Shown: positions 1,523 through 61,787, counted from the first letter of the stretch. The stretch is 64,000 bases of DNA from an uncultured Bacilli bacterium (GCA_934168275.1 CAKPNA010000001.1:132009-196008), one strand, 5' to 3'. Notes: a model not told the origin generated them from the letters alone. Numbers and translations: made by a program.

Positions 1523-3349
1523 TCAATTTACAATAAAAGGTGAACTTGAAGTCCCATTGCCACTGGATAATACTGTGCCTTTTTTTAAGGATATTGTAGG
1601 TCTAACGTCTAACAAACTAGTGACATAGTTGCTGCTGAAATCCCCAGAAGAACGCAAGGTGAACTCGTTAGCAGCCCAGACGCTGAAGTGAGACGGAGAA
1701 AAGGACCAATTATGTACTCCATTGTATAGGTAATATGATGTATTTGTCTGCCATAGAACCGCTCCAGCATATGCCATTTCTTCCGCTGTTATCATACCAA
1801 CTGGATATGTCAACTTACCATTGCCATTATCCGCACTAACTGAAAATTTATCTAATTGTCTTGGACATACTAAACTAAGTTTTCTATTATATAATCTTTG
1901 CATACTACCAAAATTTAACCACTTATCATAATTACTATAATTATTATTCCAGCCACTAGTATTAAAATTATAATATGTTCGGTCATTACAAAAACCAGTA
2001 TCTTCTAATTTTGATGTATAACTAGTCATATTAGTTTTATACCAAGCGTCTATTTTAACTTTAGCATTTGATTCTTTAACATTAATGTTTCCTTCAAACA
2101 TATCATTTAATAAATCTTTTGGTTTCTTACCATTTGTTAAAGTAAAATAGTAAGCATTTTTATTTTCATTATATATAAAATGAATATAATATACACTTTG
2201 ACATGTTGTACTTGAACTAAAACAAGTATAATGATATTTATCAGTATAATTACTATATTCTGTATTCCAATTGCTTGGGTTTGTTAACGTTTTTGTATCT
2301 TTTAAAGTATATTTTCCTGTGCTAGCATCATATGTTGCATCATTACCAAATACAATATTTCCACTTAGCGTTGTAATATCCTTACTACTAGCAGTATGAG
2401 CAGTATTATACATGTATCCTACATAGGCTGGTGAGTTTGGACTTGTATTAAATTGAATATTACCTATTGTTGTATCCACACCAGTATTATTACATTGTCC
2501 ATTAGAAGGTTTACCATCATATATTAATTTAACCCCACCAGTTTCGGTTGTTCTTACTATTCGCCAACAAAAGTTAGCGAATAAGACATGATTATTATCT
2601 ACTGCTCCCCTGTAGTAATATACAGGGACATTATTTTCAGTATTAGTTGTTGTATATATACCTTTTGTCCCATCATCACTAGATTGTTTACTAAAATCTA
2701 TTTTAGTATATTTATCGGCACTACTCTTTATCTTATAGAATAAAGTATTTGTTCCGTTCCCATCATCATAACCATAATCTATTGGTAGATTAGGATTATT
2801 ACTTGATGTTCCTTTCATATTAACTGATATACTTCCACTTAAATTTTGGGTTTCTGTTTCATCTAGCCAAATATATAAGTAATATGTTTTTGTATAATTA
2901 TTACCTGATTTAGTTATATTATCATAGTCATTTTTAATTAGCCAAACATCATTACCAACTGTTTTATTTTTAAAACTGCCACTTGATACAATATCCTCAG
3001 TACAACTACTAGCATTAGTAGTAAGTGTATATCGCATTGACTCTCTTTTTAAGCTATCCGATAGTGTGGCAATATTCATGCCTATACTAAATGATACTTT
3101 ACCACCTGAAGTATTATTGGAGGTTGCCACAATTTTCTTCTTAATAGCATATTCACTAGTACACTTAGATGGCATGAATGAAGTATTAGTATTGCCTCCT
3201 CCATCAATAGTCATTGTCAAATTACCTGCTCTAATTTGGGTAATATTAGTGGCTACTGCACTTGTTGTATAATAAGCAAATGTTCCTCCAATACCTAGCA
3301 TTACTATTGATAAAATAGTTAAAATAATAAATAATCTCTTTCTTTCCAT
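1523..3349 (-). CDS. large secreted Asn/Thr/Gly/Tyr-rich protein with TasA/camelysin-type (SipW-cognate) signal peptide; paralog A of a multigene family
   Basis: 608 aa ORF. The N-terminus MERKRLFIILTILSIVMLGIGGTFAYYTTSAVATNITQIRAGNLTMT matches the GGTFAYFSD...NTFAAGTLDLTL pattern of TasA/CalY SipW-dependent signal peptides. The first ~92 codons are identical to the ORF at 59963..61531. The C-terminal segment is locally GC-rich (..DVRPTISL..PFIVN). Confidence 0.75.
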   Translation of the reverse strand: MERKRLFIILTILSIVMLGIGGTFAYYTTSAVATNITQIRAGNLTMTIDGGGNTNTSFMPSKCTSEYAIKKKIVATSNNTSGGKVSFSIGMNIATLSDSLKRESMRYTLTTNASSCTEDIVSSGSFKNKTVGNDVWLIKNDYDNITKSGNNYTKTYYLYIWLDETETQNLSGSISVNMKGTSSNNPNLPIDYGYDDGNGTNTLFYKIKSSADKYTKIDFSKQSSDDGTKGIYTTTNTENNVPVYYYRGAVDNNHVLFANFCWRIVRTTETGGVKLIYDGKPSNGQCNNTGVDTTIGNIQFNTSPNSPAYVGYMYNTAHTASSKDITTLSGNIVFGNDATYDASTGKYTLKDTKTLTNPSNWNTEYSNYTDKYHYTCFSSSTTCQSVYYIHFIYNENKNAYYFTLTNGKKPKDLLNDMFEGNINVKESNAKVKIDAWYKTNMTSYTSKLEDTGFCNDRTYYNFNTSGWNNNYSNYDKWLNFGSMQRLYNRKLSLVCPRQLDKFSVSADNGNGKLTYPVGMITAEEMAYAGAVLWQTNTSYYLYNGVHNWSFSPSHFSVWAANEFTLRSSGDFSSNYVTSLLDVRPTISLKKGTVLSSGNGTSSSPFIVN

Positions 3350-3371
3350 AAATGTACAATCCCTTTCTTAG

Positions 3372-3427
3372 TAAATAAAAAACTACGATAAAAAGAGTCT
3401 AATCGCTTAAACTCTCTTTACCGTAGT
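3372..3427 (-). terminator. strong intrinsic terminator/attenuator hairpin immediately upstream of the paralog A start codon
   Basis: On the mRNA: ACUACGGUAAAGAGAGU-(12 nt loop)-ACUCUUUUUAUCGUAGU, a 17 bp stem with 2 GU pairs, followed by UUUUUUAUUU. The stem ends about 45 nt before the ATG at 3349 and the U-tract ends about 22 nt before it, just ahead of the AAAGGGA Shine-Dalgarno. Plus-strand arms are 3382-3398 and 3411-3427. Confidence 0.6.
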
Positions 3428-3459
3428 TATTATATTATTTAAACAAACATGTGTATTAT

Positions 3460-3516
3460 TTAGCCCCCCCCCCCCGGTAAACTTGGAGTTAACTTTTTAT
3501 TAACTTTATTATCCAT
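3460..3516 (-). CDS. putative leader peptide ORF (18 aa, MDNKVNKKLTPSLPGGGG) containing the poly-G tract
   Basis: AAAGGAG Shine-Dalgarno (3532..3526) sits 9 nt upstream of the ATG at 3516..3514. The frame runs through 12 G and hits TAA at 3462..3460. With 13 G the frame would continue and stop at a UAA inside the loop of the downstream terminator. Confidence 0.4.
   Translation of the reverse strand: MDNKVNKKLTPSLPGGGG
3464..3475 (-). repeat. homopolymeric tract of 12 C on the plus strand (12 G on the coding strand); candidate slipped-strand phase-variation site
   Basis: Direct count of 12 consecutive C in a roughly 27% GC genome. The tract lies inside the leader ORF, 115-126 nt upstream of the paralog A ATG. 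Confidence 0.95.
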
Positions 3517-3580
3517 AATTATTAGCTCCTTTCTACTTAGGAAGAAATACTTTGTTTGTTTATTTTCTTACCTTAAATTA

Positions 3581-3609
3581 ATTCTAGCACAAAACTCATC
3601 TCTATGCAA
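3581..3609 (-). promoter_or_regulatory. sigma-A-like promoter (TTGCAT-17-TAGAAT) for the leader/paralog A unit
   Basis: Minus strand reads gtcTTGCATagagatgagttttgtgcTAGAATtaatttaagg. The -10 hexamer is at the aligned position of a TATAAT in the second locus. Confidence 0.45.
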
Positions 3610-3642
3610 GACCAAAAATTACATAAATATTTTAAACTATAA

Positions 3643-6092: not shown

Positions 6093-8279
6093 CTATTTTT
6101 TATAACAATAATTATCATTTATTTTAGTATATCCACTTAAACAAGTATAAGTTGTTACAAGAGCACGACAACTAAGATTATTATTATATAGTTCTTCTCC
6201 AGCATCACACCAACGATTATCCTTACACGATGAATAATTTACACTACCCTGTGATACACAGGAAGCTCCCCAACCTGTACATCGACATGACGTTACCCTA
6301 CCAGTATTTGTTATACAACCACAAGAACCAGTTATATTTGAGTGTGATGTACCTCTATCTTCATATGTAGAACTTTTCTGAGTTGCCACAATAATAATCG
6401 AACAGCTACTAGGATTACCTGCTGTATCTTTTACATAATATGTATGCGTTCCAACTGCAATACTCTTACTAGTACTATTACTTCCGGAATATGAACTACT
6501 CCATCCTTGATAAGCTATTCCTTTATCATCACTAGCTGTTGCTGTTATATTACTAGCATCAGCACTTAATGTACATGTTGGTGATGTTGTATCATTAGCC
6601 TTCCATATAGCATACAAAGTTGTTGATTCATTAGCTGTATACTTAGAACCCGGCTGATAACTAGTTCCACTACCATCAATACTAGTATTCCAACTAACAA
6701 AAGCATAACCTGTTCTCGTTGGCTTAGTACTAGATAAAGTTAAATCAACTGTATTATATTTATCTTGACTTGTCGGAGCACCACTACCACCATTAGCATT
6801 ATAATTAACTGTTATAACATTAGATATATAACCTATAATATTAATAACTGAACTATTACCAACATTATCATAAGCAATTACTTGGATATATCTTTGCCCT
6901 GTATCAGATATAGTTAAATTACTATTATTACTCACTATATTATTACTAACAATATTAGTATTTAATTGATTATATATACCACTACTATTTTGTAATATCC
7001 TAATCTCTTTTATATTGCTCATACTATCACTAGCATTATACTTAATATTAAAACTATTATAAGACCAATTCTTATCATCTATCGAAATACTAGTATTAGT
7101 ACTCTTCTCTATCTTATTACCAATTAAACTACCTAAACAATTATCTTTATTAGAGCACCTCTGTTCAATAACATTAATAGTAGGAGCTGTTCTATCAATA
7201 TAAATACTAACATCTATCTTACTACTATTTCCTGCTTCATCAGTTGCTACAATAGTAGCTTTTCTATTACCATCACCAGATAATGTCTTAGAGCAAGAAT
7301 TATTACAATTGGCACCACTATTACTAGGACTGCCTCCATTAATACTACCTTCATTATTATAAGTCCATTTAATCGCACTATTTTCATTAGTACTAATATC
7401 AAACCAATATCCATAATTTTTCCATTCATTAATTATATAATTACTATTAATAGTAGTAATAAGTTCTCCTTTAGTTTTTGGATTATTTCCCTCATAACTA
7501 CCAATCTTATAAACATTTAAACTAATAGCTGGAGGAATATTATCTATAAAATCAATATTCTTAGTAGCATCTGCTACATTCTCTCCATTAATATTAACAA
7601 AAGCCGATATTACACCATTAGATTTAATATTTAACCTAACTACATCACTACTTGCTAAATACCAACGTCCTGACTCTAAACTACTAACTGCATTATTACT
7701 ACAATTACCAATACCTTCACAAGAATAAACTACATCATTAGTAGTAACCGTATTTTCATCAAATTCTGATATATAAAAATATCTATAATAATTATCATTT
7801 AAACCATTATATAATATCTTCGTATTTGTTGTTTTTACTTTCTTACCTTTATTATCCGTAGATATTGATATACTAGATTGATAACCACAATCTACATCCG
7901 GTAAAATACTATCTTCAAAAGAAAAACTAGTCTCTTTTATAACTTTACTATCTTTATCTCTGACTACTTTTAACATAGTATCCTTTGATAATTTATCATT
8001 CTTATTAATAGTATTCTCATCAAAATAACCTATCTCTATCATATTACCTAATGATATACAACTATATTCATAATTATCTTTAACATTCCAATAACTAGAT
8101 ACTTCATCAGTATATATTTTCGATATATCTTTAATATTATTATAAGTAATTAACTCAGCATTATCTTTTGCCTTATTAATGTTTTTCATTACTATATATA
8201 CTGTAACACTTAAAACTACTCCAAGTATAACTACTGTACTTAATAACTCCACTAATGTAAAACCATTTTTCTTTCTCAT
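6093..8279 (-). CDS. prepilin-type N-terminal cleavage/methylation domain protein (large pseudopilin-like) with Listeria-Bacteroides repeat (Flg_new-like) domain and Cys-rich C-terminus
   Basis: The N-terminus MRKKNGFTLVELLSTVVILGVVL is a class III signal peptide (G|FTLVE). Residues ..GYAFVSWNTSIDGSGTSYQPGSKYTANESTTLYAIW match the Flg_new repeat. The last ~80 aa contain 14 Cys. Confidence 0.7.
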   Translation of the reverse strand: MRKKNGFTLVELLSTVVILGVVLSVTVYIVMKNINKAKDNAELITYNNIKDISKIYTDEVSSYWNVKDNYEYSCISLGNMIEIGYFDENTINKNDKLSKDTMLKVVRDKDSKVIKETSFSFEDSILPDVDCGYQSSISISTDNKGKKVKTTNTKILYNGLNDNYYRYFYISEFDENTVTTNDVVYSCEGIGNCSNNAVSSLESGRWYLASSDVVRLNIKSNGVISAFVNINGENVADATKNIDFIDNIPPAISLNVYKIGSYEGNNPKTKGELITTINSNYIINEWKNYGYWFDISTNENSAIKWTYNNEGSINGGSPSNSGANCNNSCSKTLSGDGNRKATIVATDEAGNSSKIDVSIYIDRTAPTINVIEQRCSNKDNCLGSLIGNKIEKSTNTSISIDDKNWSYNSFNIKYNASDSMSNIKEIRILQNSSGIYNQLNTNIVSNNIVSNNSNLTISDTGQRYIQVIAYDNVGNSSVINIIGYISNVITVNYNANGGSGAPTSQDKYNTVDLTLSSTKPTRTGYAFVSWNTSIDGSGTSYQPGSKYTANESTTLYAIWKANDTTSPTCTLSADASNITATASDDKGIAYQGWSSSYSGSNSTSKSIAVGTHTYYVKDTAGNPSSCSIIIVATQKSSTYEDRGTSHSNITGSCGCITNTGRVTSCRCTGWGASCVSQGSVNYSSCKDNRWCDAGEELYNNNLSCRALVTTYTCLSGYTKINDNYCYKK

Positions 8280-14033: not shown

Positions 14034-14058
14034 TTTAGAATCTATCAAAAGTTATTTT
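14034..14058. repeat. 25 bp direct repeat (left copy) flanking the AAA+/vWA insertion
   Basis: tttagaatctatcaaaagttatttt is identical to 17270-17294. This copy supplies the stop codon of the vWA gene, read in a different frame from the rbgA copy. Confidence 0.9.
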
Positions 14059-15334
14059 CAACGTTTTGCCTTTTTACTAAACTTAATTTTTTTGCACCTT
14101 CTCTAGCCAATATATCATCTTCTTCAACAAATATATATCTTATACTTTTTTCATCAAAATCTTTAAAGAAATAGCGACGATTATAATCATCCAAAAAGCA
14201 TGGCTTTTCATGGCCGATAATAACCCACAATATATCTAATCTATTAGTTGGAAATGTTGAAAAGCCATCAGTTATAACTATTTTATTGTCAGAATCACTA
14301 GAAAAACTATCTGCCATAACATGAAAATTTGTTCCACCACGACCAACAATTTGTAAACTATCTATGTCATTATTAGTTCTTATATCATGCCATCCATAAA
14401 ACTTAGTATCACAAAATCCAACTTTAATATTACTATACAATAAAATATTTTTACATTCTCTTAATATAACTCTGATTTTAGCCATATCCATAGAACCACT
14501 ACTATCGATAATAATTTCACTATCAGAATCTATTTCTTCATTTTTCGTTTCTTTTTTAATTATTCCATCCATCTGAACTTCATAAAAACAAGTTGAACTA
14601 TCATCAGGGACTTTTAAGTTGGATTCTAATATATTCTGCCATCTTAGTAATGGCTTAGCCGTTCCAACAGCAACAGCAGGGAATTCTATTCCGAGAGCAT
14701 GTTCTCCACATTTTAATGGCTTTGATTTCTCCGATTCAAACTGTAATTTCATTTTATAACTATCAAATAATTCTTTTCGCATTTTTTCATTATTTGACAT
14801 TAAATCTTGCAAATCTTTAGCATCTGCATCTTTCATCATCTGTCCTGTCATTTCACTAACTTGACTTAAATCAATATGAAAAGTATTTCGACCCATCCAT
14901 TCCTTAATTTGATTAATTTGTGGCAACATTTTCATATATAATTCATCAACTGAATAATTTAGCGCATCCTCTACATATACTAATCCCTTAGGCATTTTTA
15001 AACCATCTCTAATCAACAATTGATTTATAATTGCATCCTCCACATAATTTAATAAATCTTGATCTCTACCAATATTTCTAAACAAATGACTTAAAACTAT
15101 ATGAAAAATTTCATGTACTATAATAAAAACTTTTTCTTCATCATCAAAATCAGTTAAAAACTCGTCTTTATAATAAATAGATTTCCCATCAGTAAAAGCT
15201 GGAGCGGGAACATTCTTTGATGTATGTTTTATTTCAAGATTAACAATTATATTTCCAAATAAAGGATATCTAAAAAGAACTTCATTAATTATATTATTTA
15301 TGTTCATTTGGCACCAACTTTTTTGCATAAGCAA
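14045..15334 (-). CDS. vWA domain protein with N-terminal HExxH metallopeptidase-like domain (DUF2201-like)
   Basis: HExxH at IIVHEIFHIVLSH; MIDAS-type DxSxS at IIIDSSGSMD. It overlaps the AAA+ gene by 41 nt. Confidence 0.65.
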   Translation of the reverse strand: MLMQKSWCQMNINNIINEVLFRYPLFGNIIVNLEIKHTSKNVPAPAFTDGKSIYYKDEFLTDFDDEEKVFIIVHEIFHIVLSHLFRNIGRDQDLLNYVEDAIINQLLIRDGLKMPKGLVYVEDALNYSVDELYMKMLPQINQIKEWMGRNTFHIDLSQVSEMTGQMMKDADAKDLQDLMSNNEKMRKELFDSYKMKLQFESEKSKPLKCGEHALGIEFPAVAVGTAKPLLRWQNILESNLKVPDDSSTCFYEVQMDGIIKKETKNEEIDSDSEIIIDSSGSMDMAKIRVILRECKNILLYSNIKVGFCDTKFYGWHDIRTNNDIDSLQIVGRGGTNFHVMADSFSSDSDNKIVITDGFSTFPTNRLDILWVIIGHEKPCFLDDYNRRYFFKDFDEKSIRYIFVEEDDILAREGAKKLSLVKRQNVENNF

Positions 15335-17129
15335 ATTGTTGCTTTTTATATAATTCCATCATTTTTTGTTCATCGCCTTTAGACCATTCATAATCAAACA
15401 TTGCTAAAAATTCATTCCCTAATTGAGATATAAATTCTCTTACTTTATCAAAGTTTTCATCATCTACACTTGATAAGCATAAAGTCGTATACCATCTTAT
15501 TGATGGATCAAATGGAACTGATGAAGGTGCACATCTATCGTTTATTACATCATCAATCGTAGCTAATTGCAATTTAGAAAATTTTATAAAGTCTTTGGTA
15601 ATCTCATCACCAACAAAAGCACGAAGAACATTTGGATTATTACACTCATATAAAGCTTTAGATGCTAGTGCCCACTTTCTAGGATCAGCATTAGGAGTAA
15701 TTCCATTATATGGTGTCCTTAATACTTTATTACCATTAACTTTAATATAGTCAACAATAGCAGGATGTATTTTTTCATGTTCTACAAGTGGTATGTATTC
15801 TAATTTTCTTTCTTCTTTTTTCCTTCTTAAAGCCCAATCCAACCATTCATCTGAATCAGTATCAATATAAACATGAGCAAATCTTCCAAATAATGGTTCA
15901 CTTAAACCATTAGCAGATCGTGATTCACTCACCTCATTACCCGCAGCACAAACAACAGCATTTTTGGGTAATTCTAATCTAAAACCACTGTTTGTAAGAG
16001 TTTTGTTAAGTGTTACCTCAAAAGCAACTTTTTGCACATCACTTTTAGCATTCGTTAACTCCTCTAAAAACAATATATGTAATAATTCAGGAGCCTCTTC
16101 ACATTTTTTGCATAAACTTTTATACCAATATGGCTCATATAAGAATAACTCTTTTGAATTAAAATCTTTGGCAATAATACCTGTAAATCCATCTGAACTA
16201 GTACAGCCAAAATCAATTAGTTCTAATTTTTTATCTAAAGCAAGCATTCTTTCAGTTTTACCAGTACCAGTTTTACCATGTAAAAATACTGCAATATTAC
16301 TTTTAATACAAATCTCTATAATATCTTCTTCGGTTAATGTAGAAAAATCAAAATTATATCTATTACTACTTGAAACCTCTTTTTCTTCATAAACCTGAAC
16401 TAATGATTTATGTTCTAATTCATCATTAATACTTGTTAAAAAATCAGTATTTAAATATTCATAAATAATTGTATCCTCAAAAAAATCCTTTTTATGTTGA
16501 CCAATTTTCTTAGAAAAGATAACAGCAACTGAATATATAACTCCTAATTTTTCATCATAAACAAATGGTATTTTATCAACTTTCATGTATATGATAGTAT
16601 CTTTTGCTGAATAGGTACCATCACTCAATAATTTTTTTGAGCCTTGATACGGAATTTTAATAAATCTTATTCCTAATACTTCATACTCCTCGTATAGTCT
16701 ACCATCTACATTATGTTGTCTACCTGTTTTATACAATAATTTACTTTTACTTTCAAACATTTTATCAATGGTTTTTCCAACTCCACCATTAATAGAATAT
16801 AAAGGATATTCAAAATCGATATCATCAATTTTAGATGCATCAAAACCATCAATATCATTAACATCAATAACAATTCTAACTCCTTTTTTATCATCATTAA
16901 TACTTGCAATATTTAATATTCCACTGCCACTTACATATTTTCTAGTTCTTACATTTGGTTGATTTTGTGAAGGCATCCCATCTACCCAATAATCACCAAA
17001 ACCAACTGTTTCGTCATACTTGCCGTCAGTAATTCGTGCTAAATCTGAATAATAACACCTTAAATCATTGCTTTCTGATAATTTTCTAATTTGTTCCTCT
17101 GTAAAAATGCCAATTTTTCTAACCTTCAT
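15294..17129 (-). CDS. AAA+ ATPase (MoxR/McrB-like) with about 280 aa N-terminal domain of unknown function
   Basis: Walker A FLHGKTGTGKT, Walker B ILFLEEL, sensor-1 CAAGN, Arg finger region PLFGRF. The likely start is MKVRKIG at 17129, preceded by a GGAGGAAG Shine-Dalgarno; the 6-frame ORF extends to 17186. Confidence 0.65.
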   Translation of the reverse strand: MKVRKIGIFTEEQIRKLSESNDLRCYYSDLARITDGKYDETVGFGDYWVDGMPSQNQPNVRTRKYVSGSGILNIASINDDKKGVRIVIDVNDIDGFDASKIDDIDFEYPLYSINGGVGKTIDKMFESKSKLLYKTGRQHNVDGRLYEEYEVLGIRFIKIPYQGSKKLLSDGTYSAKDTIIYMKVDKIPFVYDEKLGVIYSVAVIFSKKIGQHKKDFFEDTIIYEYLNTDFLTSINDELEHKSLVQVYEEKEVSSSNRYNFDFSTLTEEDIIEICIKSNIAVFLHGKTGTGKTERMLALDKKLELIDFGCTSSDGFTGIIAKDFNSKELFLYEPYWYKSLCKKCEEAPELLHILFLEELTNAKSDVQKVAFEVTLNKTLTNSGFRLELPKNAVVCAAGNEVSESRSANGLSEPLFGRFAHVYIDTDSDEWLDWALRRKKEERKLEYIPLVEHEKIHPAIVDYIKVNGNKVLRTPYNGITPNADPRKWALASKALYECNNPNVLRAFVGDEITKDFIKFSKLQLATIDDVINDRCAPSSVPFDPSIRWYTTLCLSSVDDENFDKVREFISQLGNEFLAMFDYEWSKGDEQKMMELYKKQQFAYAKKLVPNEHK

Positions 17130-17157
17130 AAATCTTCTTCCTCCATAACGTCTAAAT

Positions 17158-17186
17158 ATGATAACATAAATTTTTAATATTTGCAA
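17158..17186 (-). promoter_or_regulatory. sigma-A-like promoter (TTGCAA-17-TATCAT) inside the inserted cassette
   Basis: Minus strand reads ttgcaaatattaaaaatttatgttatcat, about 30 nt upstream of the AAA+ gene's Shine-Dalgarno. Confidence 0.4.
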
Positions 17187-50507: not shown

Positions 50508-51662
50508 TTAATAATTACTACAATAATTTTTCATATACATTTTTACACCTTCAAACATTATATTAATACTGACATTCAAATCTCTATCTATTTCTAAATG
50601 ACACTTTGTACATTTGTATGTCCTTTCGTTTAGGTTCTTATATTTTTTATCAATATTTTCACATACACTACAAGTTTGACTTGAGGGATAATAATCATAT
50701 ATTTGATAAAACTGTTTACCTTTAAATTTCGATTTATACTCTAGTTGTTTTAATATTTCATTAAAACTTGCATCATTTATATTTTTTGATAGAGTTGTCT
50801 TTTTGCCATTTATTATCATTTCTTTAGTATGAAGTTTTTCACATGTGATAATATCATATTCATCTGTAATATTTTTAGTTATTTTATGTATATAATATTT
50901 TCTTGCATTTGCTAGTTTTGAATGAAGTATCGCTAATTTTTGTTTGCACTTTTTATAATTTTCACTACCTTTTACTTTTCTTGCTAATAATCTTTGCATT
51001 CTCTCTATTCTTTTTTCATACTTTAAGATATATTTATTGTTTTCAAATACAGTTCCATCAGAAAGAGTTAAAAGATTTTTAACTCCTAAATCTATACCTA
51101 CTATCGAAGTTGGAATAACTTTATCGATTTCATCATGAATTTCAAAAAGTACAGAAACATAATATTTTCCACTTGGTTCTTTTGAAATAGTCGCATTTAA
51201 TATTCTCCCATTGATTGATTCAGTGTTTCTATAACCTCTAATTTTCATTACTTTAAGTTTAGGCAATTTAATAGTTTTGTTTTTTAAATCAAGTTCAATA
51301 TTACAATAGTTATGATTTTTGTACGTACCATAAACAGCAGTTGTATTATAACTATTTTTACTAAATTTACTTTTGAATTTTGGATAACCACCTTGTTTAT
51401 TAAAAAATCTTTTATATGAATCATCTAGATTAAACAATGCTTTATTTATAGCAATACTATCTATTTCTTGTAAAAATGGATATTCGTATTTTAAATAATG
51501 AGTATAATGTCTTATATTTTCATTTGCTTTCTTATAACCGTTTTCTTTTAGCATATTCAAAAAATAGTTGTAGACAAACCTAGTACAGCCTAATGTTTTA
51601 TTAATTAAAGTTCTTTGATCTTCATTTGGATAAATTCTAAATTTATATGCTTTGTAATACAT
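50508..51662 (-). CDS. tnpB: IS605-family OrfB/TnpB (RNA-guided nuclease family) protein
   Basis: N-terminus MYYKAYKFRIYPNEDQRTLINKTLGCTRFVYN and a C-terminal zinc finger (CSVCEN...CTKCHLEIDRDLNVSINI). Confidence 0.85.
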   Translation of the reverse strand: MYYKAYKFRIYPNEDQRTLINKTLGCTRFVYNYFLNMLKENGYKKANENIRHYTHYLKYEYPFLQEIDSIAINKALFNLDDSYKRFFNKQGGYPKFKSKFSKNSYNTTAVYGTYKNHNYCNIELDLKNKTIKLPKLKVMKIRGYRNTESINGRILNATISKEPSGKYYVSVLFEIHDEIDKVIPTSIVGIDLGVKNLLTLSDGTVFENNKYILKYEKRIERMQRLLARKVKGSENYKKCKQKLAILHSKLANARKYYIHKITKNITDEYDIITCEKLHTKEMIINGKKTTLSKNINDASFNEILKQLEYKSKFKGKQFYQIYDYYPSSQTCSVCENIDKKYKNLNERTYKCTKCHLEIDRDLNVSINIMFEGVKMYMKNYCSNY

Positions 51663-58388: not shown

Positions 58389-59288
58389 CTATCTTTTACG
58401 TCTTCTAACTAATCTATTTTGTTTAATAACTTCATCTTTTGGAATATCAATATTTAATTTATAAGATATCTTAGGTTCTCTAAATTTAACAGTAGGCATA
58501 TCTTTTAATGATTCAAGACTATATTTATCCATTAAATAATCATATGCTCTAACCATATACTTATCTCTTCCCATAAATATAATAGTATATACTGAAACAG
58601 TAATATTATCTTTATCTATCTTAACCATAACTATATCATCATCAGTTAAATATGTATCAGTAGGAATATCATCAATAGATATATTATTAATACTATTATC
58701 TAATAACCCCAACATATCTTCACCAATAGTATCATCATCACTATCTCTATATTCCTCTAATTCTCTTCTATACTTATCCTTAAGTAAACTAACTATATCT
58801 TCTTCCTTAGGTATACATAAGTCTTTATAAAATTCCCCATCTAAATTCATTAAATAACTATTACTATTATTAAATAAATTATCTAATTCTTCTCTAGATA
58901 ACATAAGTACTCTATCATTAGAATTAACAAACTTAGTTAAAACTAAAGCACTATTACCATCTCTAACAATATACTTCTCATATACATTTCCATCTTTAAT
59001 CATTACATATACTTTATCATAATCAAATAATTGTATAGTATGTTTAACTTCAAATAACCCATTTTTTGATATATAAGTAGGAATATTAGCATAAGCAAAA
59101 GACTTTCTTCTATCATCTTCCATATATCTATTAATAGATACACAAGGATAATCTATAACATCATGATATATAATACCATCTCTACTAAATATAGTTAATG
59201 AATCATTATAACCAATACTTACTTGTACACAATCACTACCTACATAAGGTCTACTAACTCTCTCTACTATTTCATCCCTATTTTTCAT
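58389..59288 (-). CDS. hypothetical protein (299 aa)
   Basis: ORF with a basic C-terminal tail; no recognised motif. Confidence 0.45.
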   Translation of the reverse strand: MKNRDEIVERVSRPYVGSDCVQVSIGYNDSLTIFSRDGIIYHDVIDYPCVSINRYMEDDRRKSFAYANIPTYISKNGLFEVKHTIQLFDYDKVYVMIKDGNVYEKYIVRDGNSALVLTKFVNSNDRVLMLSREELDNLFNNSNSYLMNLDGEFYKDLCIPKEEDIVSLLKDKYRRELEEYRDSDDDTIGEDMLGLLDNSINNISIDDIPTDTYLTDDDIVMVKIDKDNITVSVYTIIFMGRDKYMVRAYDYLMDKYSLESLKDMPTVKFREPKISYKLNIDIPKDEVIKQNRLVRRRKR

Positions 59289-59574
59289 AACACTATCTCC
59301 TCACGTCATTTTATTCTATCACAATTATATATATTTTTAAACCACTACTATAAAATATTCTAAAAATACTTCAGATATCACTACCTGAAGTATATATTTA
59401 AATATAATTTAATCTATATTAGTGTTCAATACAATTTACTTACTAATATAGATTGTCTACAATCTTTTTAGAATTTTTTTAATTTTCAATCCATAGAATC
59501 TACCTGTTTCACATATAAAGGCAAAATATTACCATAGCAATTATATTGTTATAGATTTTGCCGAAGTAAACGTA

Positions 59575-59707
59575 CAAAAAATAGTAAAAATACGGACGGA
59601 CCCCGTTAGAGTTGTTGACGTTGTTGTTGTTCAAGTTCCCATCAGAGTCCAAGTTGAACTCGTTAGCATTCGAGTTGTTGAAGTTATACGGAGACAAAGC
59701 CCAAACT
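59575..59707 (-). pseudogene. orphan internal fragment (~133 bp) homologous to the GC-rich 3' segment of the secreted-protein family
   Basis: About 75% nt identity to 60040-60150 of paralog B (..tgggctttgtctccg...aacgagttc...ggggtccgtccg..), encoding ..SPYNFNNSNANEFNLDSDG...GVRP. Homology stops on both sides. Confidence 0.6.
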
Positions 59708-59890
59708 AAAAGTCAAAAACTAACGAAGCAATCTCACGGTAAGATCCTAAGTTAATTTATATAAACTATATCATATAGATTAACCCATAATAATATTTAT
59801 ATTGCCGGCTCCTATTTAGTCGCCGGACTTCACTAATAGATTATCTCTTTGTTAAGGGGTTACCTTTACCTCAAGATTATCTTTATTATT

Positions 59891-59914
59891 GGCCTTGAAA
59901 GGGTTTTCAAGGCC
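59891..59914. repeat. perfect 10 bp inverted repeat GGCCTTGAAA-GGGT-TTTCAAGGCC downstream of the paralog B stop
   Basis: Seen directly. GC-rich stem in an AT-rich spacer with no flanking U-tract on either strand. Confidence 0.6.
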
Positions 59915-59962
59915 ATCCATTCAAGCATTATGCAAGGGATAGAACTAATTTTCTTCCAAGCT

Positions 59963-61531
59963 CTATCCAATCACGAACGGATCTGCAGCAGTCCCTGATC
60001 CTCCTCCTGTCATCCCTATCCCCGGTTGAAGTGAAACGGACGGACGCACCCCACGAGGGGTATTGACGGTGCTGGAGTGCAAGTGCCCACCAGAGCTCAA
60101 GCCGAACTCGTCAGCAAACGGGTAGAGGAAGTCAAACGGAGACAAAGCCCAATAAGATTTTCCTGTATATAAGTAAAATGAACCATTTGCATCAGATGAA
60201 CTACTATAATATTTTCCTCCGGCATATACCATTTCATCAGCAGTTATTAATCCAACTGGATATGTTAATGCACCATTACCATTACTTGTATTTACTGTAA
60301 ACTTATCATTATCTTGAGCACATTTTAATGTTGGTGTTGGATTTGATACCTTAGGTCCTACTCTAGATGTTGGACCATATACTGTTTTATTTGTTCCATA
60401 TCCTAATGTTGTATAACTACTATAATTCCCACCATTTGAATTTGCTAAATCTGTTACTATACTTCTATCATTACACCATACTGTATCTTCTAATTGTAAT
60501 GTATAACTTGTCATATTATTTTCATACCATGTATCTATTACTCCCTTTATTGTTGAATCATTTGTATTGGCATGAGTACTTGCGTATGTACTTGATTCAG
60601 TAGTTCCAAACATATATCCTACATATGCATTATCATCACGAGTTGAATTAAATGCTGAACTACCTATTGTAGAATTATTACCTGTATTATTACATTGACC
60701 ATTAGATGGTACTCCATCATAGATAAGTTTTACTCCACCTGTCTCGGTAGTTCTTACTATTCGCCAACAGAAATTAGCAAATATTACACGATTATCTACA
60801 TTACCTCGATAGTAATATACCGGATTACCACTATCGGTATTAGTAATCATAAATATACCATTAGTATTATCTTGTACTGATGTTTTACTAAAATCAATAG
60901 TAGTTGTTGTATCAGCATTATTTTTTATATAATCATATAAAGGAATAGTTTTTACTGCTTCTGTTGTTAAATTAGGATTATTACTAGATGTTCCTTTCAT
61001 ATTAACTGATATACTACCTGATAGATTTTGAGTTTCTTTTTCATCTAACCATATATAGAGATAATATGTTTTGGTATAAGTATTACTTGTATTAGTAATA
61101 TTATCATAGTCATTCTTTACTATCCATATATCACTACCTACTGTGGCATTACTAAAATTACCATTTGCAATTAAACCATCAGTACAACTATTCTCAGATG
61201 TTGTTAAAGCATATTTCATTGTAGTAGTCTTTAAACTATCCGATAATGTTGCTACATTCATACCTATACTAAATGATACTTTACCACCTGAAGTATTATT
61301 GGAGGTTGCCACAATTTTCTTCTTAATAGCATATTCACTAGTACACTTAGATGGCATGAATGAAGTATTAGTATTGCCTCCTCCATCAATAGTCATTGTC
61401 AAATTACCTGCTCTAATTTGGGTAATATTAGTGGCTACTGCACTTGTTGTATAATAAGCAAATGTTCCTCCAATACCTAGCATTACTATTGATAAAATAG
61501 TTAAAATAATAAATAATCTCTTTCTTTCCAT
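59963..61531 (-). CDS. large secreted Asn/Thr/Gly/Tyr-rich protein with SipW-cognate (TasA-type) signal peptide; paralog B
   Basis: 522 aa. The first ~92 aa are identical to paralog A, then diverged but homologous (..VYYYRG.VDN.V.FANFCWRIVRTTETGGVKLIYDG.PSNGQCNNTG..). GC-rich C-terminus ..GVRPSVSLQPGIGMTGGGSGTAADPFVIG. Confidence 0.75.
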   Translation of the reverse strand: MERKRLFIILTILSIVMLGIGGTFAYYTTSAVATNITQIRAGNLTMTIDGGGNTNTSFMPSKCTSEYAIKKKIVATSNNTSGGKVSFSIGMNVATLSDSLKTTTMKYALTTSENSCTDGLIANGNFSNATVGSDIWIVKNDYDNITNTSNTYTKTYYLYIWLDEKETQNLSGSISVNMKGTSSNNPNLTTEAVKTIPLYDYIKNNADTTTTIDFSKTSVQDNTNGIFMITNTDSGNPVYYYRGNVDNRVIFANFCWRIVRTTETGGVKLIYDGVPSNGQCNNTGNNSTIGSSAFNSTRDDNAYVGYMFGTTESSTYASTHANTNDSTIKGVIDTWYENNMTSYTLQLEDTVWCNDRSIVTDLANSNGGNYSSYTTLGYGTNKTVYGPTSRVGPKVSNPTPTLKCAQDNDKFTVNTSNGNGALTYPVGLITADEMVYAGGKYYSSSSDANGSFYLYTGKSYWALSPFDFLYPFADEFGLSSGGHLHSSTVNTPRGVRPSVSLQPGIGMTGGGSGTAADPFVIG

Positions 61532-61553
61532 AAATGTACAATCCCTTTCTTAG

Positions 61554-61609
61554 TAAATAAAAAACTACGATAAAAAGAGTCTAATCTCTTAAACTCTCTA
61601 TATCGTAGT
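61554..61609 (-). terminator. intrinsic terminator/attenuator hairpin upstream of paralog B; copy of the 3372-3427 element
   Basis: Arms at 61564-61580 and 61593-61609, followed by a U-tract on the mRNA. Nearly identical to the locus A hairpin. Confidence 0.6.
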
Positions 61610-61700
61610 TATCTTTATTTTTATTTAACAAACAGTTGTTATTATTTGCCCCCCCCCCAAGTAAACTTAGAGTTAACATATTATTATAATTCTTTTTCAT
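61581..61700 (-). CDS. putative leader peptide ORF (39 aa) containing the poly-G tract and terminating inside the terminator loop
   Basis: AAAGGAG Shine-Dalgarno 9 nt upstream of the ATG at 61700. MKKNYNNMLTLSLLGGGANNNNCLLNKNKDNYDIESLRD, with the UAG at 61583..61581 as the last 3 nt of the hairpin loop. Confidence 0.4.
   Translation of the reverse strand: MKKNYNNMLTLSLLGGGANNNNCLLNKNKDNYDIESLRD
61649..61658 (-). repeat. homopolymeric tract of 10 C on the plus strand (10 G on the coding strand) inside the leader ORF
   Basis: Direct count. Confidence 0.95.
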
Positions 61701-61787
61701 AAATTTTAACTCCTTTCTAGTAAACGTTCGTTTGCTATAACCTTTACTCGGAAGAAATATGTTTGTTTATTTTCTTACCTTAAATTA

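Follow-up and report, generated by a model that had tools for sequence, protein, structure and literature searches.

We analysed a 64,000-nucleotide (nt) stretch of DNA from an uncultured Bacilli bacterium (GCA_934168275.1, CAKPNA010000001.1:132009-196008), referred to here as the window, which carries two paralogous genes, A and B, for large secreted proteins, a leader with a short upstream open reading frame (uORF) in front of each, and a repeat of the genes' 3' region downstream of B. The lineage is an uncultured human-gut 'Bacilli' with 26% G+C, the same value as the window, and is represented by the metagenome-assembled genomes (MAGs) CAKOYD01 and CAKPJO01 and by UBA6414. We put at about 60% the probability that A and B belong to a secreted-protein family varied in three ways: by a diversity-generating retroelement (DGR), by a poly-G phase switch and by gene conversion.

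Genes A and B and their shared 5' block

The two genes and the block that they share are as follows:

1523..3349, minus strand: gene A, 608 amino acids (aa), with a probable SipW-type signal peptide, a camelysin/TasA-like N-domain and a large DUF6273-related C-domain ending in a variable region (VR)
59963..61531, minus strand: gene B, 522 aa, paralogue of A
3081..3404 and 61263..61586, minus strand: exact 324-nt block common to A and B, a gene-conversion tract

A global DNA alignment of the two loci matched A 3404..3081 to B 61586..61263 exactly over 324 nt, beginning 55 nt before the ATG and extending to codon 90. Immediately upstream, ~30 nt contained ~3 differences (~90% identity), the leader further upstream was 55-75% identical, and downstream of the block DNA identity fell abruptly to 63-68%. 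The original prediction, made from the window alone, had described two homologous open reading frames (ORFs) with nearly identical first ~92 codons and ~85 nt upstream, the latter containing a ribosome-binding site (RBS) and a terminator hairpin, and a homologous yet diverged leader beyond. Both ORFs are real and homologous, the alignment agrees with the rest of this description, and a strong intrinsic-terminator-like structure does lie just upstream of the main RBS. The figure of 60-70% identity given for the remainder of the proteins holds for the N-terminal half (69% over the first 361 aa) but not for the last 200 aa, which are 40% identical. Relative to B, A also carries an insertion of ~86 residues.

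Over 5,500 nt, the window and sample L001 differed only by a single G in the poly-G tract and by 14 substitutions that all cluster at 3164..3313, within the block common to A and B. In sample L101, B has only six substitutions (61474..61495), and these are the same changes that separate the two A alleles at 3292..3313. Among A-type orthologues, the identity of the first 92 residues is uncoupled from that of the body, as in P0002, in which the body is 100% and the N-terminus 93% identical. As these comparisons show, short 5' patches that include the signal-peptide region and the terminator/RBS cassette move between paralogues by gene conversion, and this exchange produces the identical 324-nt block. 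Contig L083 (1..250) encodes a protein identical to P0120 behind a different upstream leader half with a tract of seven G (G7), which we take as evidence for exchange of the leaders themselves between loci. A contingency-type secreted or surface family with ongoing 5' gene conversion, as originally proposed, is thus supported both by the clustered L001 substitutions and by the same six changes in B of L101.

A and B belong to a family of secreted-protein genes that is dispersed over the chromosome. The original prediction had suggested looking elsewhere for further copies of the 5' cassette, and many were found: each MAG has 4-5 leader-bearing family copies, the family is spread over at least eight distinct chromosomal loci, several of which co-occur within the same samples, and A and B have more than 2600 close homologues. 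A scan of Joint Genome Institute metagenomes for an 18-mer of the terminator gave 22 matches, 9 of which were true leaders. Scans of viral sequences with protein profiles detected no phage relatives, and scans of viral contigs with the downstream repeat and its flanking sequences returned chance matches only, or nothing.

A single recombination event could alone yield an identical 324-nt block, and A and B might then be no more than a duplicated pair that underwent one recent conversion, without programmed variation. We consider this very improbable. It is contradicted by the many loci and thousands of homologues and, as described below, by variation that follows template adenines and by poly-G tracts that are exclusive to leaders and polymorphic in length.

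A DGR template repeat and the variable regions of A and B

The window holds three copies of a repeat, two of them at the 3' ends of A and B. The third had been noted originally as an orphan fragment that supports gene conversion or recombination within the family. The fragment does exist (59592..59704; 76% identical to 60040..60152 in B and 65% to 1597..1709 in A), but it is the AAC-rich template repeat (TR) of a DGR and not a remnant of a recombined gene. The features of this region are:

59591..59704, minus strand: DGR TR, encoding ..SPYNFNNSNANEFNLDSDGNLNNNNVNNSNGVRP, with 13 AAC codons
60039..60150, minus strand: VR of gene B, residues 461-497
1598..1712, minus strand: VR of gene A, about residues 547-584
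59705..59962, minus strand: conserved, GC-richer and hairpin-rich non-coding segment from the stop of B to the TR
59408..59590, minus strand: conserved non-coding segment downstream of the TR, candidate DGR RNA spacer

The TR aligned without gaps to the 3' end of B (60039..60150), with 28 mismatches, 22 of which fall at template adenines (hypergeometric P = 3e-10, given an adenine share of 29% in the TR). At an independent metagenome locus, L071, an adjacent TR/VR pair had 23 of its 24 mismatches at adenines (P = 3e-16). We also considered the fragment as a pseudogene, which is ruled out by its AAC richness together with the adenine-specific mismatches.

Variation across homologues follows the same pattern. 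In 86 B-type homologues, residues at A-containing TR codons had an entropy of 2.1-3.5 bits, except at a GAG codon (residue 475, 1.3 bits), and residues at adenine-free TR codons were all at or below 1.3 bits. In 79 A-type orthologues, which are 82-100% identical overall, ten interspersed VR positions exceeded 3 bits (554, 556, 557, 559, 561, 564, 566, 570, 573 and 574). The residues found there (Y, S, G, D, H, N, A, C, R, I, V, T, F and L) are mostly reachable from AAC by altering its two A's (NNC), and the scaffold between them is nearly invariant (F555, W558, A560, EF, L565, SSG, F571, V576 and RP). Such patterns define adenine-directed DGR mutagenesis, which at the level of sequence is the main source of protein variation and acts on the C-terminal VR. 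Template adenines become any base in the last ~37 codons before a conserved GVRP motif, giving large diversity at 15-20 surface positions upon a fixed scaffold.

The window TR is not the cognate template of A, whose VR differs from it by 40 mismatches, only 18 of them at A. Because the A-type scaffold has TGG and TTC where the window TR has TCG and TTG, A must use another template; no such template is present in the window, where the TR and the VRs of A and B are the only copies of the repeat.

On the 3' side, both repeats end in a G/C-rich boundary (GGGGTGCGTCCGT in the VR and GGGGTCCGTCCGT in the TR), after which homology stops, and in L071 the 14 nt GGGGTGCATTCTGT are identical in VR and TR. 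We infer that this boundary acts as the initiation of mutagenic homology. The non-coding DNA that flanks the TR on both sides is conserved in the window, L071 and L111 and rearranged in L039. A segment of the 59705..59962 type also follows B-type genes that have no template (L102 and L110), and probably corresponds, together with the VR, to what was originally described as a GC-rich 3' segment. Rfam searches, run on the whole window at the gathering threshold and on the TR region at permissive E-values, gave chance-level matches only.

Several further observations concern this region. The segment after the stop of B holds the hairpins GGCCTTGAAAACCCTTTCAAGGCC and GTCCGGCGACTAAATAGGAGCCGGC in the window, L102, L110, L111, L071 and L039. 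Beside the gene of an IS4-like transposase in L039 (1..1400 of the UBA6414 contig DJPK01000020.1), the sequence that comes after the 3' segment begins like a TR and continues as a VR and gene 3' end; this hybrid looks like the product of recombination or deletion between TR and VR. Directly downstream of the TR region, the window encodes a 299-aa acidic protein without a Pfam match (58389..59288, minus strand), which is kept at this place in other samples. The contigs of L071, L110 and L111 end no more than a few hundred bases beyond the family gene or TR.

We searched for the reverse transcriptase (RT) and Avd expected of a DGR. RT motif C was absent from all window ORFs of at least 120 aa and from the fetched loci, precomputed Pfam annotation of the 10-kb flanks of eight family loci contained no RVT_1, and no recognisable Avd was found in the 64-kb window or the fetched loci. 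The TR spacer is followed in L071 and L111 by a short ORF for which Pfam and NCBIfam gave no family and a database search no relatives, and which we do not call Avd; it is shortened in L111, and the homology of the window to both loci stops right after the TR spacer, before this ORF. In addition, 6 of the mismatches between the TR and the VR of B are at bases other than adenine, and near-identical strains have the same VR in A and the same VR in B. That no RT or Avd was found in the DNA covered, the non-adenine mismatches and the unchanged VRs count against the DGR part of our reading.

The same observations, with the truncated homology and ORF, are what would be expected of a DGR fossil that has lost its RT, with present variation arising from recombination and ordinary mutation only. 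We regard this as unlikely, though it is the most serious of the alternatives considered here. Hypervariability follows template adenines even among orthologues that are 82-99% identical elsewhere, which implies that diversification persisted during recent strain divergence, and diverged loci have kept the non-coding DNA on either side of the TR. An RT of the DGR type can work in trans on distant targets, and our search covered only a small part of the genome. Assemblers are likely to fail on TR/VR repeats, so that RT-bearing neighbourhoods may be systematically missing from assemblies. The DGR may therefore be inactive now, act rarely or depend on an RT elsewhere in the genome.

The architecture of the proteins was examined with profiles and structure prediction. 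Pfam and NCBIfam gave nothing above cut-off for A or B. Their N-terminus, ..GIGGTFAYYTTSA, weakly matches TIGR04088 (15.4 bits for A and 14.1 bits for B; cut-off 19), and for PF12389 the homologue P0155 alone passes (37.2 bits versus a cut-off of 22.5), whereas A and B do not. A 45%-identical homologue matches Peptidase_M73 (camelysin/TasA) over residues 3-171, and AlphaFold2 (AF2) predicted a confident beta-sandwich for residues 45-185 (predicted local distance difference test (pLDDT) of 63-91 for the N-domain). A SipW-type signal and a resemblance to TasA/camelysin are thus probable for A and B, with both proteins below the curated cut-offs. Foldseek comparison of the AF2 model with the PDB produced generic beta-sandwich matches with TM-scores up to ~0.2 and was not used.

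The C-terminal ~330 residues are a widespread module: clustering at 50% identity gives 5,726 clusters, the proteins that carry it reach 4,905 aa, and it is fused to VWA, GH3, ALK/LTK glycine-rich and Listeria-Bacteroides repeat domains. Neither B nor a diverse C-domain profile found a relative in sequence searches of the PDB. In several homologues the VR end matches DUF6273 (39.4 bits in P0121 and 26.9 bits in P0161), which has been reported as a C-type-lectin-like DGR target domain of gut phages (PMC10743442).

Leaders with a poly-G tract, a uORF and a terminator

The leaders of A and B contain the following elements:

3460..3516, minus strand: uORF of leader A in its present short frame (MDNKVNKKLTPSLPGGGG, then stop), with Shine-Dalgarno AGAAAGGAG at 3526..3534
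3464..3475, minus strand: poly-G tract of leader A, 12 G (11 G at the same locus in another sample)
3377..3426, minus strand: terminator-like hairpin (3383..3426) and T-run of leader A, between the uORF and the RBS of A
3581..3589, minus strand: putative extended -10 element of leader A, TGcTAGAAT, at a position conserved in all aligned leaders
61581..61700, minus strand: uORF of leader B in the long frame, 39 codons, with Shine-Dalgarno at 61710..61718
61649..61658, minus strand: poly-G tract of leader B, 10 G (11 G in L074)
61559..61608, minus strand: terminator-like hairpin (61565..61608) and T-run of leader B

All leaders share one order: a -10-like element, a conserved 5' segment, the uORF, the G tract, the terminator, the main RBS and the ATG. 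The -10-like element of leader B is TATAAT; TGcTAGAAT of leader A was not flagged by a consensus promoter scan. The uORF begins with AGAAAGGAG and an ATG 7-9 nt later, followed by 13 codons that end in an invariant GTTAACTCYAAGTTTAC, and in 21 distinct uORF sequences the spacing of Shine-Dalgarno and ATG is fixed and the distance from ATG to tract is 40-41 nt. In these 21 versions, in which codons 2-8 differ widely, the uORF frame contains no in-frame stops, compared with 62 and 51 in the other two frames. The uORF thus appears to be under selection, and we predict that it is a translated leader ORF; in L075 and L101 the long-frame uORF of leader B was called as a 39-aa gene.

Long G tracts are confined to this position. 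Within the window, the two leader tracts are the only G runs of at least 8 (0.03 expected), and in 477 kb of DNA from the lineage all 32 G/C runs of at least 8 sit in uORF leaders. The same 477 kb, at 74% A+T, has no A or T run of 10 or more, which suggests that long homopolymers are avoided genome-wide except where they are used. Tracts range overall from 7 to 12 G and differ in length at all four loci compared: G12 versus G11 at the A locus, G10 (window, L075, L076 and L101) versus G11 (L074) at the B locus, G10 versus G11 at the P0118 locus, and G10 in seven samples, G11 in one and G9 in one at the P0120 locus. Over ~60 kb of pairwise orthologous alignment from four loci, the only indels were +/-1 G in the tract.

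By setting the frame, tract length determines whether the uORF ends before the downstream hairpin or inside it. Two of the three frames meet a stop 1-24 nt past the tract, often via a conserved CTAAATAA, and the short-frame uORF ends 19-42 nt ahead of the hairpin. In 21 of the 22 distinct spacers, which fall into at least five types, one frame and no other is open as far as the hairpin (0.43 expected from shuffles for at least one open frame), and in all terminator-type leaders this long frame ends at a TAG or TAA in the terminator loop, as does that of leader B (TAG, 61581..61583). The hairpin of leader A combines a 20-pair stem with a T-run (-25 kcal/mol, z = -8.2 versus shuffles; 99% of cells paired, 2 compensatory pairs), and that of leader B has -22.3 kcal/mol (z = -6.95 versus shuffles). 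In a second leader type, found at the P0118 and P0120 loci, two smaller hairpins replace the terminator; the second holds the RBS, and the stop that closes the open frame lies 5 nt beyond the main ATG.

Three other roles for these elements were considered and rejected. The hairpin is not the terminator of an upstream gene, as it lies downstream of the conserved -10 element and uORF; the poly-G tract does not belong to a promoter spacer, as the uORF contains it and the -10 element is ~110 nt upstream; and the only alternative pairing for an antiterminator, a 6-bp AACUCU/AGAGUU helix, is too weak against the 20-bp stem.

The poly-G tract and uORF together are most likely an ON/OFF device, with the terminator placed as a putative attenuator between promoter and uORF on one side and the main gene on the other. 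The original prediction had noted neither tract nor uORF in the diverged leader. Transcription would start at the conserved -10 element and yield a ~190-nt leader carrying a uORF with a strong Shine-Dalgarno. After 13 codons the uORF would enter the hypermutable poly-G, where slipped-strand mispairing at replication would reset the frame. In either of the two short frames, the ribosome would stop 1-24 nt past the tract, the terminator would fold and the gene would be OFF. In the long frame, the ribosome would melt the 5' arm of the hairpin and cover its 3' arm, RNA polymerase would read through and the gene would be ON; in leaders of the second type, a long-frame ribosome would open the RBS hairpin and reinitiate, again giving ON. 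In the strain of the window, B (G10, long frame) would be ON and A (G12, short frame) OFF. The architecture of a frame-dependent switch can be read directly from the leaders, and from it we infer function and direction.

Polarity is the weakest step of this model. A real switch could have the opposite polarity or act at another level, if a long-frame ribosome occluded the RBS or destabilised the mRNA, or if control were purely translational with a leaky terminator. Among leaders with interrupted, locked tracts (long in L006, L059 and L067, and short in L038), the locked-short L038 keeps an intact terminator, and one leader has lost the uORF start codon (ATG to ATA in L002 and L003). Firmicutes, moreover, often uncouple transcription from translation, which would weaken any contest between ribosome and terminator. 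We nevertheless think such a variant improbable, and favour long as ON because of the leaders of the coupling type and of where the short-frame stops lie. In leaders of the second type, a long frame that crosses the RBS hairpin and ends 5 nt past the main ATG has the classic geometry of positive translational coupling; in the terminator type, the long frame ends in the loop, where the ribosome must have melted the 5' arm; and short-frame stops 19-42 nt before the hairpin cannot affect it.

Some family members lack the module altogether. In ten samples (L087-L096) the uORF RBS is fused precisely to the main RBS, with loss of the whole uORF/poly-G/terminator module, and some B-type genes at the nrdD locus have a bare, module-less promoter (L102).

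The leader could also act as RNA. Its consensus fold nests three helices around the uORF start (AAUAAACA/UGUUUGUU, CUUCC/GGGGG and GGAGUUAA/UUAACUCY), with 96.8% of cells paired compared with 42-53% in slid controls, and the 17-nt block at the end of the 13 codons is conserved at synonymous positions. On these grounds the poly-G might be a structural part of a riboswitch-like or protein-bound leader RNA, forming the 3' strand of a helix with the upstream CUUCC, with length differences that are neutral or assembly noise and an irrelevant uORF frame. This too seems improbable to us. A 5-bp helix needs no 10-12 G's, G runs occur nowhere else in the 477 kb, the uORF frame is protected from stops, and twin stops after the tract with one open third frame are kept across at least five spacer types. 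Rfam searches with the leader at permissive E-values gave chance-level matches only, and covariation is weak, with only three compensatory changes, two of them in the L038 terminator stem. RNA structure and a DNA-level switch are not mutually exclusive, and an RNA-level role for the conserved leader block, compatible with the switch, is possible.

Further points have to be set against three-way variation of the family, besides weak leader covariation, the frequent uncoupling of transcription and translation in Firmicutes and the results of the RT search. Poly-G lengths are the consensus of short-read assemblies, in which homopolymer miscalls are possible. The long frame is present in about one third of leaders, as random tract lengths would give. 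Residues 186-522 had a pLDDT below 50 in two AF2 runs (with 25 and 139 sequences), which left the proposed C-type-lectin fold of the VR domain unmodelled.

Between gene B and its TR there is no terminator, and transcription of the template RNA might thus come under the same switch. We advance tentatively, and at somewhat less than even odds, that the leaders represent an undescribed type of switch, in which a poly-G tract within a uORF would set how far the ribosome travels, and so gate a terminator (or RBS hairpin) heritably and separately for each paralogue of a DGR-diversified lectin family; it might also tie diversification to the paralogue that is expressed.

Relation to known systems and implications

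Well-known DGRs include that of Bordetella phage BPP-1, with Mtd, TR and Brt, and that of Treponema, with TvpA. Gut-phage DUF6273 'tentaclin' proteins have been reported as DGR targets (PMC10743442). The system described here resembles DGRs in its same-strand TR/VR pair, substitutions at template adenines and AAC-rich template, as well as in a VR at the C-terminal end of a ligand-binding domain, a G/C-rich boundary after it and homologues that match DUF6273. It differs in that no RT or Avd lies beside the TR, the targets are spread over at least eight chromosomal loci, subfamilies need different templates, and the TR directly follows its target among conserved non-coding segments. The targets also carry a TasA-like N-domain and a leader with a putative phase-variable switch.

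TasA and camelysin with a SipW-type signal resemble A and B in the N-terminus, where ..GIGGTFAYYTTSA weakly matches TIGR04088, in the beta-sandwich N-domain and, through a homologue, in the match to Peptidase_M73, whereas A and B have an extra C-terminal variable domain of ~330-420 aa that TasA does not have. Two pilin-like proteins were observed near family genes: a 728-aa protein with a prepilin-type N-methylation motif and a Listeria-Bacteroides repeat, two genes from A in the window (6093..8279, minus strand), and a 629-aa N_methyl/Big_13 protein directly upstream of a family gene without the switch module (L087, 995..2884). The family may be linked to such proteins. Elsewhere, the window encodes an IS605-family TnpB (OrfB_IS605/Cas12f-like; 50508..51662, minus strand), with the same element downstream of family genes at the P0120 locus, and an adjacent DUF2201 putative metallopeptidase with a VWA-like domain and AAA_5 ATPase (14045..17186, minus strand).

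Simple-sequence contingency loci are known from the poly-G/C tracts of Neisseria, Haemophilus and Campylobacter and from poly-G upstream of the Treponema tpr genes. The leaders resemble them in having a 7-12-nt G tract, length-polymorphic between near-identical strains, at a surface or secreted multigene family. Here, in contrast, the tract lies in a leader uORF before a terminator, neither in the structural gene nor in a promoter spacer, and a frame change would alter the expression of the downstream gene, not its product.

Ribosome-mediated attenuation is familiar from the pyrBI and trp leaders of Escherichia coli and, in Firmicutes, from ermK, bmrCD and vmlR/lmo0919. The common element is a short leader ORF before an intrinsic terminator, and as in pyrBI one frame extends into the terminator. 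The input here would be a heritable, reversible frameshift of the leader ORF, not a metabolite or an antibiotic-stalled ribosome. In Clostridioides difficile, cwpV and flgB undergo phase variation through termination in the 5' leader, brought about by site-specific DNA inversion with a terminator or Rho (PMC7446863). These are the nearest functional analogues: our proposal likewise has a gene for a surface structure switched by premature termination in the leader, not at the promoter, but the variable element would be a slippery homopolymer read by the ribosome, not a DNA inversion.

Our literature search found no precedent for a poly-G/uORF attenuator switch, nor for a DGR combined with phase variation. 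The poly-G/uORF/terminator module combines two known principles, contingency loci and pyrBI-type attenuation, in a combination that we did not find described. The proposed mechanism has good support from comparative sequence evidence. The DGR component is of a known kind with an unusual organisation: dispersed chromosomal targets, subfamily-specific templates and no adjacent RT.

If these proposals are correct, a repeat-coupled leader-peptide attenuator would be a new mechanism of phase variation, would account for the short 'hypothetical' genes of 18-49 aa that are called upstream of such loci, and would offer a compact, frame-programmable terminator module for engineering. DGR templates far from any RT also bear on the detection of DGRs in metagenomes. 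Of the routes by which bacteria pre-adapt surface molecules, phase variation and DGR hypermutation are the two best known, and they are usually studied apart, mostly in pathogens or phages. Here, an uncultured commensal gut Firmicute appears to stack DGR mutagenesis, stochastic ON/OFF switching of paralogues and gene conversion on one chromosomal family.

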